Shown one piece after another: positions 5,854-15,967 of a stretch of DNA of 64,000 nucleotides (position 1 is the first letter of the stretch; the number at the start of each line of letters is the position of its first letter). Position numbers and translations under genes: made by a program. Under the pieces are notes generated by a model that worked only from the letters and a program-made list of their open reading frames with translations, ran no database searches and was not told the DNA's origin. Origin of the DNA: Sedimentisphaerales bacterium (GTDB lineage: Bacteria > Planctomycetota > Phycisphaerae > Sedimentisphaerales > SM23-30); the NCBI GenBank assembly GCA_963666285.1, contig OY762711.1, one strand, 5' to 3'.

Positions 5854-5927
5854 GGGGCGGTAGCTCAATTGGTTAGAGCATTGGACTGTCGATCCAAAGG
5901 TTGCGAGTTCGATTCTCGTCCGCCTCG
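5854..5927 (+). tRNA. tRNA-Asp(GTC), CCA not encoded
   Basis: GGGGCGG/CCGCCTC acceptor stem, TTGGA-CTGTCGA-TCCAA anticodon arm, GCGAG-TTCGATT-CTCGT T arm. Confidence 0.95.
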
Positions 5928-5934
5928 CTTAATA

Positions 5935-10481: not shown

Positions 10482-10960
10482 TTTTGTATTCCTTCAAAAT
10501 TAAGGTGACCTCATGTATTTCCACAGGTTGCCTTAAGTACTATAAGTGACTGATTTTAACACCTTGTCTTGCTCAAACACTTTTAATACATCTTGTCATA
10601 TTGATAATTATAGCCTGCCGCCCAAAGTCTTTCCTTAAATAAGCATTTGTACCTTATGTCTTTTAAACTGACAACCGGTCAGTTTGAGTAAAAATGTAAA
10701 TTTCACTTTATAGCGGCATTTCGCATCATTTAATTTAGTGCATCGGTTTCAAATATGCAAGATTTTTCATCGAAAGATTAATACCATAAAAACACCCGTA
10801 CTATCAGCAATATCCCCGACACTAAACCTGGAAGTATGACCGCCAACCATAAACTAAATGACCTGATACCGAATCAGGTACAATCGACTTCCCAACCATA
10901 ACAAAACAAACCATTCTCCGGATATTTTTTGATCCGCTAATCAAAATCTGAATCCGCAAC

Positions 10961-11001
10961 AAAAAAACAGCTGTGAGAAACCGGCTAAAGCTCTCACAGC
11001 T
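10961..11001 (-). terminator. Intrinsic terminator after the Cys-rich peptide gene
   Basis: AGCTGTGAGA/TCTCACAGCT stem plus T-run on the minus strand. Confidence 0.75.
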
Positions 11002-11026
11002 CAATTATTACAAAAAGCAACAGGTA

Positions 11027-11221
11027 CTATTTACCGCAGCAACGACCGCCACATACTAAACTACAACCTTCAGTGTCTATCGGCTGATCAACAGATACAC
11101 ATACTGCAGATTGAATTTCGGCTTCCGGGGTCAATTCCAGCCCGACCTTACCCAGCTCAGATAATGCGTTCATTGCAGATACAATAGCCAGCGAATGAAT
11201 TACAACATCTTTTATATTCAT
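11027..11221 (-). CDS. 64-aa small protein with Cys-rich C-terminus (possible RiPP precursor or metal-binding peptide)
   Basis: GAAAGGA RBS before ATG 11221; MNIKDVVIHSLAIVSAMNALSELGK...EGCSLVCGGRCCGK; own terminator. Confidence 0.7.
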   Translation of the reverse strand: MNIKDVVIHSLAIVSAMNALSELGKVGLELTPEAEIQSAVCVSVDQPIDTEGCSLVCGGRCCGK

Positions 11222-11468
11222 AATTAATTTCCTTTCAAAAATAAATTTCAACTTCGATCCTGTTTACACTTACAGAATTAACAGACACATTTTCAACCAT
11301 GTCATTAACGGTTCTATCAAAATTCACTTTACACTTCGCATCAAAGCATGCCGCACTTTTCAATATTCGTTTTAACTTAATTTGATCGGACTTTGCGTAT
11401 AATACCGCACAAACAAAAGCACGCAAGCCTTCTCAAACTCAATAAAATCTCTCTTCACAAATATGGCC

Positions 11469-11480
11469 AACTGTTACAAA
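11469..11480 (-). promoter_or_regulatory. TTTGTAACAGTT motif facing the Cys-rich peptide gene
   Basis: Exact inverted partner of 11820-11831; TGTAAC resembles an ECF -35 element. Confidence 0.45.
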
Positions 11481-11819
11481 CAAAGAGCAAAAAAATGATT
11501 TTTTTGAATAAAATATCCGACTCGATACGTTTTAAATAATGGTGACCTCTGGAAATTGCTTTTGATGTTTGTGATTTCGCAAAAATGACGATATAATTTA
11601 ATAATGACAGCGTTTTCTTAATTAATGGCATAAAACCACCAATGGGCATACCATTTCTGGAGAACGCAATAAAATAAGTGCGGCTAAATTTTTATCGTAA
11701 CAATCACAGGACAAAAGCGTATAATATTATGATACAGCTTTAGTTATCTATTATAATTTAATAAATCAAACGTTGTTTTTTGACTTTTTTTCAATTTTTT
11801 AATAAAAAATCAGCCGTTT

Positions 11820-11831
11820 TTTGTAACAGTT
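11820..11831 (+). promoter_or_regulatory. TTTGTAACAGTT motif facing the propeptide/regulator genes
   Basis: Exact inverted partner of 11469-11480, about 70 nt upstream of ATG 11899. Confidence 0.45.
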
Positions 11832-11898
11832 CGGATTACTTATAAGAAACAATGTAATTAAAATTCATATTATTCACTAATTACAGGGAAACATTATT

Positions 11899-12054
11899 AT
11901 GAATAAAATTTGTAAAACATTAGGAATAAGGAAGTTAGCAAGCTTACTTGGATCATTCATATCAAAGCCGCTCATAATCACTTTGATTATTGCTGCCTTG
12001 ATTTTGTTTTCCAATGCAGCTTTGCTGGCTGGTGACGGTTCCGGTATGAACTAA
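11899..12054 (+). CDS. 51-aa putative secreted propeptide (signal peptide plus short polar tail GDGSGMN); not in the ORF track
   Basis: AGGGAA before ATG; MNKICKTLGIRKLASLLGSFISKPLIITLIIAALILFSNAALLAGDGSGMN. Confidence 0.65.
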   Translation: MNKICKTLGIRKLASLLGSFISKPLIITLIIAALILFSNAALLAGDGSGMN

Positions 12055-12145
12055 CATTTTCTCTAAATCTGGATTAGTTAATTCTGGGGTTCGATCGAAG
12101 TATTCGAAAAAATATAATTAACTAATACCATGGATGGAGGTCCAT

Positions 12146-13744
12146 ATGAATAATAATATTAAGCAAAATCGAATACAAAATGCTCTTGGCTATCTTAAAG
12201 ATCAGACCTTTGAGCAGCTGACAGATTTGCTTCAAATTCATATATCTGATAAATATATTTCCATGTTATCCAAAAATCTGGCTTCTGACAGTATCGATAA
12301 GTTTATCTCCAAAAATATGAGAAGCCTAAGTAATAACCTGCAGCCTGACACTGAATCTATCGAAGATGATTCTATATATCTATCTATCATGTTCGCGTAC
12401 CCGCATCTTATGCGTACCAGGACACCTGATGATATTACTTTCGGTACACAGGCCAATGAAGTTATTGATGAAACTATAGTCGTCAATTCCGACAACAAAA
12501 ATGAAAATAACAGCGTCAGCGAAAGACGCGCAAGCATTGTGGATATTGCCGATAAAATCTTTGATAAAAAATATCTCTCAAGCAAAATTACCCGGGCAAA
12601 ACATCAGGTTGAAGTTGCCTGCGGGTTATCATTGCTGGTTGGCAATGCCGGTAATAGAACAAATTTCATTGAGACATTAATTAATAACGGAGAGCTGAAA
12701 ATTGACTGCATAAGAAAAGCTTTGGCCCTGGAAGGTATTACTACAACTAATGTCACAATCAAGAGAACTTATGAAACACTGCGTAAACTATACCGCGAGG
12801 AGATGGCGATGGATATAAATCATGCAATAACTAACAACCTTGAATCTCTGAAGATGTTTTATAAAGAACTTCTGAAAGATGATCAGGATCCGGAATTGCG
12901 TGAACTTTGCGGGTATGCCCTTATCGGGCTTGTCAGGGAATTAGCCGGTGAAGCGTTTGAAACTATCCAAAATTGTAAATCTTATACCGCCGGACAGAGC
13001 GGCAGCCCTGACGCCGAAACTGCTAATGATATTATCCTGGATTTCTTAAGAATATATGTAGCTGACGACCAGGAAGGTACCTCGCCTGTTGAAGATATGG
13101 CTTTTGCAATTTCTGATAACATGGCCCCTTATACAAAAGCGATTGCCGGGGCACGGTCTATCTGCACGCTTCTCGGTAAAGACTCCTATGGCGGACTGTC
13201 CATTATGGCGTCAGTTGCGATCATGGCATACGAGATGATGGAACCTGACGAATATAATATGTTCTTTGCCCAGGTAAGAGAAAAAATGATGATGCTCGAC
13301 AAAAATGAAGTCGATGCAATTCGAGAAAAATACAGCGGCTTTAGCTTGAAAACACTGGATTACTTTTTTAACACAACATCATATAATCCGGCAACTAAAT
13401 ATCACGAAGCTGCTGTCATCCGGATGTCAGAATCAGAAAATGCTGACGATTTGATTGATAAAGCATGGAATTGTATCTCCTTGTTTAACGACGACATTGA
13501 CAGTATTCCTGCTCATGCGAGCATACTTGCAGAATTTGCCGGCGTTGCTTTCAAAGCCGGTATGATTGAACGGTCAAAAGACGCATGGCAGAAGGTTTTC
13601 AAACTTGGTTATGAAAATGCAATGGAAGTGGTTATTAACCATAAAAACGGTCAGAGCAACCAGGCTATAGTCCAGGCTGTTCAGGAATCTGCAATTGCAT
13701 TTAACCTGGTTCAGGAAAATGATATCATCGATGCCGGAAATTAA
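12146..13744 (+). CDS. Hypothetical helical protein with sigma4/HTH-like segment and C-terminal TPR-like helices
   Basis: GGAGG RBS; IRKALALEGITTTNVTIKRTYETLRKLYREEM resembles sigma region 4; ILAEFAGVAFKAGMIERSKDAWQKVFKL is TPR-like. Confidence 0.55.
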   Translation: MNNNIKQNRIQNALGYLKDQTFEQLTDLLQIHISDKYISMLSKNLASDSIDKFISKNMRSLSNNLQPDTESIEDDSIYLSIMFAYPHLMRTRTPDDITFGTQANEVIDETIVVNSDNKNENNSVSERRASIVDIADKIFDKKYLSSKITRAKHQVEVACGLSLLVGNAGNRTNFIETLINNGELKIDCIRKALALEGITTTNVTIKRTYETLRKLYREEMAMDINHAITNNLESLKMFYKELLKDDQDPELRELCGYALIGLVRELAGEAFETIQNCKSYTAGQSGSPDAETANDIILDFLRIYVADDQEGTSPVEDMAFAISDNMAPYTKAIAGARSICTLLGKDSYGGLSIMASVAIMAYEMMEPDEYNMFFAQVREKMMMLDKNEVDAIREKYSGFSLKTLDYFFNTTSYNPATKYHEAAVIRMSESENADDLIDKAWNCISLFNDDIDSIPAHASILAEFAGVAFKAGMIERSKDAWQKVFKLGYENAMEVVINHKNGQSNQAIVQAVQESAIAFNLVQENDIIDAGN

Positions 13745-14077: not shown

Positions 14078-15967
14078 ATGAATGCTAAAATATATATACA
14101 GACGTTTATTTTGATAGTATCTCTGGCAGGAAGTCAATTATACGGCCAGTTAAATGATTCTGTCCCGCCGATTCCTGGCCAGGAAGAGCCTGAAATATTA
14201 AACCAGGGACCTATCCATGAAGCGTTCGCCCAACCGGTCGAACTGGTAACCGAGTCAGGCATTGTCTCACCGCAAGAGCCGCCCGACGATATCATAGAAG
14301 ATCCTGCCGAGGAAAAACCCGAAAGCTCCAGATATGTCTGGATACCCGGATACTGGGCCTGGGACTCCGAGCGAAGCGATTACGTCTGGATCAGCGGCTG
14401 CTGGAGAATTACCCCGGTAGGCATGTCATGGGTACCGGGCTACTGGGACGAAATTTCTACCGGCTGGCAATGGGTACCGGGATTCTGGATATCCACTACC
14501 CAGGCCGAACAGATCAAATACCTGCCCGAACCACCGGCAATTGCCGAAACTGAACCACCGGTAACTGTCGTTGAGACTGAGAAAATCTGGGTGCCGCCCT
14601 GCTATTACTGGCACCAAAATAATTATATCCTCCGAGCCGGATATTGGCTCGACCCGCGGGATAATTGGGTATGGGTTCCATCCCATTACTCCTGGACACC
14701 GCATGGATATGTTTTTGTCTCTGGATACTGGGATTACGCTTTGGAAACACGAGGCATCTTGTATGCACCTGTTTACTTCCCAAGACGCTTCCATAGACCT
14801 CATAGATACACTTACTCATTGGGTGTTGTCGTGAATATCAGAAATCTTGAATTCAGCCTGTTCAGCCACCCGCGTTACTGCCATTATTATTTCGGTGATT
14901 ACTACAGCGACTTTTATGTCAGTATCGGAATTTTCCCATGGTTTGAATTCAAGAAACGGCACGGTTGGTACGATCCGATCTACGAACATAAACGCTGTCG
15001 ACACCGTCGAAAAGATCCGCATTGGGGCGATCATATCCGACATGAATATGAACTCCGGCGAACAGATGCTAAACGACGTCCGCCACGAACCTATCGCGAA
15101 ATTAAATCTCGACACTTACAATCGCCTAAAGATCATCGTAACGATTTTCGATTCGTTGAACCGGTTAAGTCATATACCAAAAAGAAGGATACACCATTTA
15201 AGTCCTACAGAATGGACCACAAGGAACGTCTGAAAATCGTTGGCCATGCAGACAGGGTAAATAAATCCCGTCAGCAGCGAAGAACGCTGGAGTCACATCG
15301 GTCCGCTCCGACATTCGAAAGGTCATCTAATAAATCCCATCCATCGGAAAGAAAAATGTCTGAAAAGAGTTCACGCACTACAAGTCCTGCAAGGCGAGAC
15401 CGAACTACACCTCCGACCAGGATTCAACCGGCACCACAAAGAAAAACACAAACCGACTCACCTGCCAGAAATCGAACGACTCCGGCAACCAAAACCAGAA
15501 CTGACTCGCCAACCAGAACCCAACCAACGCCACAACGAAAAACGCAGCCTGACTCGCCAACCGAGGCCAGGCCTGCACCATCATCAAAATCTAAGCCTGA
15601 CAATTCGTCCAAGACACGGTCCAACTCTCCGACCAGATTCCGGCCGGCTCCTCCAACAAACTCCCGGTCAGTTGCACCTGCCAGAGTCCAGCCTAACTCA
15701 TCAACCAAGTCTCAACCTTCATCACCAGCCAAAGTTAAACAGCCGACCAAACAATCATCAGAAAAACAAAAAAGCAATAAGAATATTTCTCCGAGACAGC
15801 AATATTATTCAAAATCATCTAATAAAGAAAAAAGTTCCAGCAGCAGTTCCCAGAACAAAACTACTTCAAAGCCAGAAAGAAACTCGCAACCACAACAGCG
15901 TAAAGATTCTGACAAAAAGGATAAAAAACAAAAAAGCGGAAGAGGTGTAGGCCGCTGGCATAGATAA
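14078..15967 (+). CDS. Secreted WXXGXW/YXWGXW-repeat protein with basic Pro/Ser/Thr-rich tail
   Basis: Signal peptide; GPIHEAFA; WIPGYW, WISGCW, WVPGYW and WVPGFW repeats. Confidence 0.85.
   Translation: MNAKIYIQTFILIVSLAGSQLYGQLNDSVPPIPGQEEPEILNQGPIHEAFAQPVELVTESGIVSPQEPPDDIIEDPAEEKPESSRYVWIPGYWAWDSERSDYVWISGCWRITPVGMSWVPGYWDEISTGWQWVPGFWISTTQAEQIKYLPEPPAIAETEPPVTVVETEKIWVPPCYYWHQNNYILRAGYWLDPRDNWVWVPSHYSWTPHGYVFVSGYWDYALETRGILYAPVYFPRRFHRPHRYTYSLGVVVNIRNLEFSLFSHPRYCHYYFGDYYSDFYVSIGIFPWFEFKKRHGWYDPIYEHKRCRHRRKDPHWGDHIRHEYELRRTDAKRRPPRTYREIKSRHLQSPKDHRNDFRFVEPVKSYTKKKDTPFKSYRMDHKERLKIVGHADRVNKSRQQRRTLESHRSAPTFERSSNKSHPSERKMSEKSSRTTSPARRDRTTPPTRIQPAPQRKTQTDSPARNRTTPATKTRTDSPTRTQPTPQRKTQPDSPTEARPAPSSKSKPDNSSKTRSNSPTRFRPAPPTNSRSVAPARVQPNSSTKSQPSSPAKVKQPTKQSSEKQKSNKNISPRQQYYSKSSNKEKSSSSSSQNKTTSKPERNSQPQQRKDSDKKDKKQKSGRGVGRWHR

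Follow-up and report, generated by a model that had tools for sequence, protein, structure and literature searches.

Introduction

Peptide quorum sensing of the RRNPP(A) type is described, in the parts of the surveys cited here, from Bacillota and from their phages and mobile elements, with Rap-Phr, NprR-NprX, PlcR-PapR and AimR-AimP as its pairs (PMC10075063, PMC9765709). A published detection scheme uses five criteria, including a propeptide of 10–100 amino acids (aa) and a receptor of 250–500 aa (PMC10075063); in the same survey sections the propeptide may lie upstream or downstream of the receptor (PMC9765709), validated pairs are spaced by −50 to 191 bp, and the mature peptide usually comprises the last 4–10 residues. 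The PatX/PatS-HetR system of filamentous cyanobacteria is outlined in the cited portion of another paper: an exported precursor is processed to the hexapeptide HRGTGR, which directly inhibits a cytoplasmic transcription regulator (PMC12756182). Here we analyse two adjacent genes in a 64,000-nucleotide (nt) stretch, hereafter the window, of contig OY762711.1 from a Sedimentisphaerales bacterium (assembly GCA_963666285.1). The first is a small open reading frame (ORF) for a candidate pre-peptide and the second encodes a 532-aa helical protein, P0001. A sequence-only reading had proposed them as a peptide-signalling pair in a likely planctomycete, and genomes of the same class, which carry Phycisphaerae records, bear out such a host and place it in that class.

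On balance we hold it probable that the pair is an RRNPP-like module, made up of an exported peptide and a cytoplasmic regulator, and that it belongs to a separate, unnamed family of Planctomycetota. The family itself is a real, conserved and apparently undescribed pairing of peptide and regulator. In a literature search that covered few subscription journals and no supplementary files, we found no paper joining RRNPP with Planctomycetota and none on this family or on peptide signalling in planctomycetes; an earlier listing of members might be traceable in the supplementary tables of the two RRNPP surveys. A word search of the available text of a 2025 review of Planctomycetota gave no occurrence of ‘quorum’ (PMC12673574).

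Results

A small hydrophobic ORF precedes the members of a planctomycete protein family

P0001 is a member of a sparse, unnamed family of Planctomycetota, and a small hydrophobic ORF lies directly upstream of the family gene in all 36 loci with readable upstream DNA, the window included. In the main clade, mostly Phycisphaeraceae, this ORF encodes a signal peptide and then E[ST]G[CA]H (31/31 readable loci). These loci comprise 26 of the 33 found in a scan of species genomes, namely those with at least 524 nt of upstream DNA, together with three and two further ones; the other seven scanned loci end no more than 267 nt from the match and were excluded from the upstream count. As the 31 are kin and several are near-duplicates, they do not represent 31 independent events. 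The 26 ORFs are 41–61 aa long and read signal peptide, ESG[CA]H[RKDG] and variable tail; one of the five further loci has ETGCHK. Throughout the 26 peptides Ala(−1), Glu1, Ser2, Gly3 and His5 are invariant, position −3 is Ala, Thr, Ser or Val, the n- and h-regions vary freely, and beyond position +6 so does the tail, with 12–20 variable residues following the conserved five or six. Since all synonymous codons of each invariant residue are in use, this pattern shows that the post-signal motif is under selection at the protein level in the main clade. The variants ESGCHR, ESGCHK, ESGCHD, ESGAHR and ESGAHG track receptor clades, a match that is no proof of co-evolution as kin share labels.

Outside the main clade, a small hydrophobic ORF was present in all five readable loci, which come from four lineages (the window, G258, G954 twice and G1658). 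Their tails are related neither to one another nor to ESG.H. The G258 peptide, a called gene, has 50 aa; the two G954 paralogs have mutually different peptides of 32 and 40 aa; and in G1658, from another class, a peptide of 48 aa combines a clear signal peptide with a tandem LNPL repeat. A motif-blind filter was passed by all five of these loci and by 21 of 25 main-clade loci, against 8/125 other large ORFs in the same loci (13/130 before removal of five family-member rows). The central inference of the sequence-only reading gains independent support: its layout, with a small-peptide gene upstream of that for a large helical protein, stands in 36 of 36 loci and is joined by motif selection in 31. 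RRNPP membership and a sigma4 domain are not supported.

At the G258 locus (L011:8890-9100), a second frame that overlaps the end of the 50-aa gene reads ALT-DSGSKR, like a cleavage site plus ESG.H, and may be a frameshift or a coincidence. A type I toxin and a ribosomally synthesised and post-translationally modified peptide (RiPP) were also considered as readings of the small ORF and set aside: no modifying enzymes are adjacent, and conservation lies past the cleavage site.

The large proteins form a patchily distributed family

The window protein has three homologs at 79–81% identity (P0002–P0004), and searching 1.84 billion representatives with a profile brought in six more proteins. With the profile of the window subfamily, hhalign gave 98.9% (E 1.2e-17) over 350 columns; the four close homologs alone gave 73% (E 3e-5). 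The link between this subfamily and the main clade is remote but colinear over the 350 columns. Arg, Gly, Leu and Asn residues are invariant in 39 of 39 aligned members, among them an Asn in an N-x-A-T stretch. In TPR grooves, Asn residues grip peptide backbones. Complete main-clade receptors measure about 450–610 aa. In two genomes the N-half (211–218 aa) and the C-half (~300 aa) are adjacent separate genes, and one genome (G954) carries two full-length paralogs.

P0001 had no Pfam match at E ≤ 1, no Pfam or NCBIfam family rose above noise for any of the 39 members, and a sequence search against solved structures matched no family member. A broader profile found matches in 7 of 400 other genomes of the class and in 1 of 400 phylum-wide; in the order of G414 it matched 20 of 401 genomes, and in that of G258 2 of 279, with one spurious match. 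The 33 scanned loci are titled Phycisphaeraceae, Phycisphaerae or Planctomycetota, and the complete genome CP087563.1 (Phycisphaeraceae) carries one family locus. Searches of 40 relatives and of a further 400 genomes from the same order did not turn up the large gene, and viral contigs, searched by alignment with close homologs, gave no family member. This distribution suggests transfer or repeated loss. A match in G790 (E 5.7e-4) was dropped from the family as an unrelated TPR protein. Neither gene of the window pair has a paralog in its own genome, and paralogous pairs, a comparison put forward in the sequence-only reading, were not found in it.

The candidate pre-peptide of the window

The 51-aa ORF, reported earlier as little more than a signal peptide followed by GDGSGMN, was recovered exactly so (Table 1), and the 91-nt gap to the large gene holds when the latter starts at 12146, as in its homologs. 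The earliest in-frame ATG of that gene is at 12134, which would give 536 aa; the database protein and the three close homologs begin at 12146. In the small ORF, a basic n-region (residues 1–23) is followed by a hydrophobic core of 13 residues (25–37), an Ala-rich c-region and a short polar tail. The −3/−1 rule, the established basis for predicting signal-peptidase sites, would place the cut after Ala44; an alternative cut after Ala40 would release an 11-mer. The predicted heptapeptide holds neither His nor Cys.

Taken alone, the 51-aa ORF is suggestive, and its weight comes from its relatives. The exact sequence is absent from a collection of 15 billion proteins. Read mapping found the ORF spanned only by the probable source sample, and no run supplied variants across it; no RNA dataset is listed as holding the locus. 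As no DNA could be retrieved for the three homologs at 80% identity, the window peptide rests on analogy. The window locus is a divergent family member, and by that analogy its peptide is probable.

A helical solenoid is predicted for the large protein

A model of a main-clade relative, built from 39 aligned sequences, was confident and all-helical (predicted local distance difference test, pLDDT, 82.6; predicted TM-score 0.66). From its N-terminus it shows a disordered tail, then a small helical head in which a pair of helices (125–136 and 142–164) resembles a helix-turn-helix (HTH), then a linker and about 14 helices. Residues 199–491 align to TPR-type solenoids with Z scores of 7.5–9.5, among them RapH (Z 7.8, root-mean-square deviation, rmsd, 3.9 over 175 residues) and the Rap of phi105 (Z 7.5). 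The low-confidence model of the window protein matched designed repeats and, among them, the Rap of pLS20 (Z 9.2, rmsd 10.8) as well as PlcR (Z 7.8, rmsd 3.0 over 97 aligned residues). By modelling, the fold class of the family is that of a helical solenoid.

For the head, sub-threshold matches to HTH_33, HTH_41, HTH_36, Tc3-type, PHROG HTH and winged-helix families were seen at E 0.015–0.2, each in one or two members. No HTH occurs among the solved-structure matches, and in the fold searches the head was covered only as part of a longer chain. Sigma-70 region 4 matched neither the whole proteins nor the cut-out HTH regions. The sigma4/HTH-like segment claimed earlier consequently loses its sigma4 part, absent even from the weak matches, and is left with sub-threshold hints of an HTH or winged HTH. 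In the ESM Atlas, the leads for the window protein were all weak, scoring below 0.9, and a relative drew none. Prediction of a complex between residues 68–488 of a main-clade receptor and the last 30 residues of its own pre-peptide gave a median of 0.19 against a mark of 0.32, with four signal-peptide residues left on the partner ahead of the predicted N-terminus; this weighs neither for nor against binding.

Regulatory context of the main clade

Mostly 40–140 nt 5’ of the peptide gene, main-clade loci carry the motif caA.AAACCGG..TTcG.GCGTT.tA. The motif was chosen by eye and then put to a leave-one-out test, in which 20 of 23 sites outscored every one of 60 shuffles; two held-out loci did so against 100 shuffles each. 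It was insignificant at G954 (12 and 26 of 100 shuffles as good) and at best borderline at G258 (4/100). A Gibbs motif search was discarded, as it returned mainly A/T and C tracts. Promoters of extracytoplasmic function (ECF) sigma factors have AAC and CGT boxes, according to the cited part of one study (PMC8103513), and the main-clade motif resembles such a promoter but could be an operator.

In about 22 of 26 main-clade loci, judged by eye, the gene divergent from the peptide gene encodes a secreted protein rich in Arg, His and Gly. Most of these proteins share a W-x-x-P-V-Y...D-x-C-G stretch, and three that were checked had no Pfam family. Inside four of them (L027, L029, L039 and L049) we noticed ESG[HQY]H, an echo of the peptide core that is possibly a second source of ligand or a mark of common origin.

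These observations bear on two other roles for the peptide. It could be a secreted product that is co-regulated with the regulator, for example a metal-binding or surface peptide, without being its ligand. The invariant His5 next to Cys or Ala4 would suit such a product, as would the ESG[HQY]H held by the four divergent proteins themselves. ATCUN (amino-terminal copper- and nickel-binding) sites have a Gly-Xaa-His-type end, and the loss of two residues would give the main-clade peptide such an end. We nonetheless consider a mere co-regulated product decidedly unlikely: the window, G954 and G1658 peptides lack the motif and yet the position is kept, and conservation of only five or six residues suits the ligand of a pocket. 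Alternatively, with ligand and receptor unchanged, a periplasmic peptide might be re-imported by the cell that made it, in a private loop that serves as a timer or gauges Sec or peptidase activity or envelope integrity and carries no signal between cells. In planctomycetes, being diderm, the product of Sec export arrives in the periplasm; main-clade peptide genes are preceded by an ECF-type motif (AAC...CGT); and the core peptide hardly diversifies across the family, unlike kin-specific pheromones. Against this, a 5–7-mer is near the size that passes porins, and tails that differ wholly between lineages and between the G954 paralogs would fit distinct channels. We regard a private loop as unlikely.

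Weighing the peptide-regulator reading

Several results weigh against the reading of the window pair as an RRNPP-like module. The window protein has a very long branch and a deviant composition, and it modelled poorly (pLDDT 41.7). The TPR-type matches are equalled by SusD proteins (Z 9.5), and no fold match stands above unrelated solenoids. Foldseek, which had been put forward as a check on the large protein, returned nothing at E ≤ 0.001 against the PDB and viral structures. TPR hidden Markov models (HMMs) from Pfam and NCBIfam matched none of the 39 members at E ≤ 0.1; the earlier description of a helical protein with a TPR-like C-terminus is broadly upheld by modelling but not by any TPR HMM. 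The HTH evidence stays below threshold (best E 0.015–0.1). The binding protein of oligopeptide type (SBP_bac_5) that re-import would use occurs in five of five tested genomes, with two copies in this one, and also in 11 of 14 control genomes. At the window locus, the divergent target gene of the main clade was not detected and the peptide lacks the ESG.H motif. DNA of P0002–P0004 was found in none of the metagenome, genome and viral contigs searched.

Some of the contrary evidence concerns the small ORF itself. Codon usage does not set it apart, with 26.5% of 863 intergenic ORFs reaching its score, it is not a called gene, and the main-clade motif is insignificant upstream of it, with 13 of 100 shuffles as good. 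In this genome, moreover, 334 of 2396 large ORFs (14%) get through a loose, motif-blind filter. One could argue from these points that the family is real and that the window ORF arose by chance or decayed in an AT-rich spacer, leaving the large protein as an orphan receptor. A strict filter for a signal peptide plus short tail, however, is passed upstream of just 7 of 2569 large ORFs in the genome, the window pair included (both filters were designed post hoc, with the target already known), and in length (51 aa, against 41–61 in the main clade), strand, spacing and Shine-Dalgarno (SD) sequence the ORF matches the family layout. A spurious ORF is in our view highly improbable.

Other contrary points concern export. 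A basic n-region is missing from both G954 peptides, that of G258 shows no clear cleavage site, AxA or other, and the n-region of the window ORF is unusually long (23 residues), as might be expected if the small protein were retained in the inner membrane, uncleaved or as a signal peptide, and tethered or inhibited the large protein as an anti-regulator. The main clade speaks otherwise, since its conserved residues lie just past an invariant Ala(−1) and a small −3 residue, on the exported side, and its n- and h-regions are free to vary. We judge a membrane anti-regulator very unlikely.

A model for the pair

Under the RRNPP-like reading, the small and large genes, whose layout is conserved, would form a co-transcribed two-gene unit. 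The pre-peptide would pass through Sec and be cleaved by signal peptidase I, as the canonical AxA site and the motif conservation suggest, to release GDGSGMN in the window and E[ST]G[CA]H-x with a disposable tail in the main clade. Perhaps trimmed to 5–7 residues, the peptide would leave the cell or accumulate in the periplasm and could re-enter through an oligopeptide ATP-binding cassette transporter, such binding proteins being present in these genomes. Binding to the TPR-like C-terminal solenoid, a fold class obtained by modelling, may then make the N-terminal HTH-like domain engage or release DNA. To judge from synteny, the output would be the divergent neighbour gene, in the main clade that of the secreted Arg/His/Gly-rich protein, together with feedback on the unit.

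More tentatively, it is quite possible that Planctomycetota have a lineage of peptide cell-to-cell signalling of their own, independent of RRNPP or remotely related to it. Signal peptidase itself would make the pheromone, either by exposing its active N-terminus (E[ST]G[CA]H-x) or by releasing it entire (GDGSGMN). The signal would cross a diderm envelope, and a reader of HTH and solenoid, in one or two proteins, would control an ECF-driven unit and the divergent secreted Arg/His-rich protein. If true, this would be the first peptide communication code for Planctomycetota, testable with synthetic hexapeptides. Planctomycetes would gain a defined candidate signal that is cheap to synthesise, along with a receptor and candidates for the promoter motif and the target gene; direct tests of whether they communicate, and by what means, would come within reach, and the case would show how peptide signalling handles an outer membrane. 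The naturally split receptors would make the sensing and DNA-binding halves separable for study.

Other features of the locus

Coordinates of the pair and of the divergent genes are collected in Table 1.

Table 1. Features of the window pair and divergent genes (window positions unless a locus is named)
Feature	Position	Strand	Basis or remark
Divergent 64-aa gene, strong ribosome-binding site, Cys-rich tail (five Cys in last 24 residues)	11030..11221	-	called gene
SD-like AGGGA	11885..11889	+	9 nt 5’ of small-ORF ATG; sequence reading
51-aa candidate pre-peptide ORF	11899..12054	+	ORF reading; predicted; counterparts at the same place in family loci
Predicted mature heptapeptide GDGSGMN	12031..12051	+	from −3/−1 rule, cut after Ala44
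GGAGG SD of large gene (start 12146)	12136..12140	+	sequence reading; homologs start at same Met
P0001 (532 aa), predicted to be cytoplasmic and all-helical; candidate regulator responding to the peptide	12146..13744	+	homologs, hhalign, relative’s model
N-half segment with HTH-like helix pair, ~residues 149-216	12590..12793	+	alignment, relative’s model, sub-threshold HTH matches in relatives
Residues 222-532 (~310 aa), C-terminal TPR-like alpha-solenoid; candidate domain for peptide binding	12809..13741	+	split forms P0005/P0006, fold searches
Divergent Arg/His/Gly-rich protein genes (main clade)	L018:3690-4199, L036:3941-4420, L049:3929-4333, equivalents	-	

Within the large gene, a GAGGAG SD precedes Met222 (window 12797–12811), exactly where two relatives have the gene split, and may permit a separate C-terminal product in the window. 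An internal translation start at the domain junction was rejected as a family trait: an SD occurs in only 3 of 34 linkers, versus 34 of 610 background windows.

The divergent 64-aa gene has a codon score reached by 2.3% of the 863 intergenic ORFs. It has no cluster mates, Pfam match or paralog, nor a counterpart in five relatives. By position alone it could be a regulated target; it could also encode a metal-binding or RiPP-like peptide. Directly downstream of the pair (14081–15967, + strand) lies a gene whose secreted product carries WXXGXW repeats and a long tail rich in Ser, Pro, Arg and Lys; the gene was not found in three congeners and is present in two copies in G010. It was rejected as part of the module for want of a homolog in the family loci.

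The pair sits in an AT-rich stretch (28–40% GC over 11000–13000, versus 41% for the genome). A few kb away are a tRNA-Asp gene (5854–5928) and then, up to 8775, a low-GC gene that fuses an Eco57I-type methylase and a BsuBI/PstI-type endonuclease; this tRNA and restriction-modification stretch is likely an insertion hotspot. Positions 11539–11567 form one end of a dispersed element of ~170 bp with terminal inverted repeats and ~60 near-full copies in the genome, resembling a miniature inverted-repeat transposable element, of which positions 10505–10535 look by eye like a minimal end-to-end remnant. A degenerate copy of a second dispersed repeat (~150–170 bp, 40–60 copies) occupies 10545–10700 and has a palindromic AAACTGAC..GTCAGTTT stem at its end. 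Elsewhere in the source genome, nine tRNA genes on the minus strand (C1:5226832–5229866), several with anticodons duplicated elsewhere, resemble a mobile tRNA array, and beside the 6.15-Mb chromosome contigs C2–C4 have near-equal lengths (65.6–66.6 kb) and are possibly related plasmids or phages.

Discussion

Set against the described portion of the RRNPP(A) scheme, the pair agrees in several respects. Its 91-nt gap falls inside the validated −50 to 191 bp, the propeptides have the expected size (51 aa in the window, 41–61 in the main clade), and adjacency is kept in all 36 readable loci. By modelling, the receptor would likewise combine an N-terminal HTH-like part with a C-terminal TPR-like solenoid, with weak structural matches to RapH, the Raps of phi105 and pLS20, and PlcR. 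The predicted mature peptide is short, and in the window it is the C-terminal tail of seven residues.

In other respects the family departs from RRNPP(A). The window receptor, at 532 aa, exceeds the 250–500 aa of the scheme, and the TPR HMMs that recognised none of the 39 members were those of Pfam and NCBIfam, not the detector’s own set. No sequence relation to RRNPP or to any solved protein is detectable. The host phylum is diderm, and the conserved main-clade peptide is not a C-terminus but the N-terminus that signal peptidase leaves. Two genomes encode the receptor in two adjacent genes, main-clade peptide genes are preceded by an ECF-type motif, and viral contigs gave no member with the close-homolog alignment. 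Size and adjacency thus agree with the scheme; receptor length and TPR HMMs do not, and therefore the family is not a formal member of RRNPP.

The PatX/PatS-HetR system offers a second comparison. The RG[ST]GR motif is absent from the listed family peptides, no HetR family or sequence match was obtained, HetR is not among the fold matches listed, and the family receptor has, by modelling, a TPR-like solenoid. The window tail does hold a G-S-G core, three residues that may be shared by chance with the cyanobacterial peptide as given in the source cited above. As far as that source describes it, PatX/PatS-HetR also resembles what we propose here in a broader sense: in a diderm cell, a short peptide that has been exported and processed acts on a cytoplasmic regulator.

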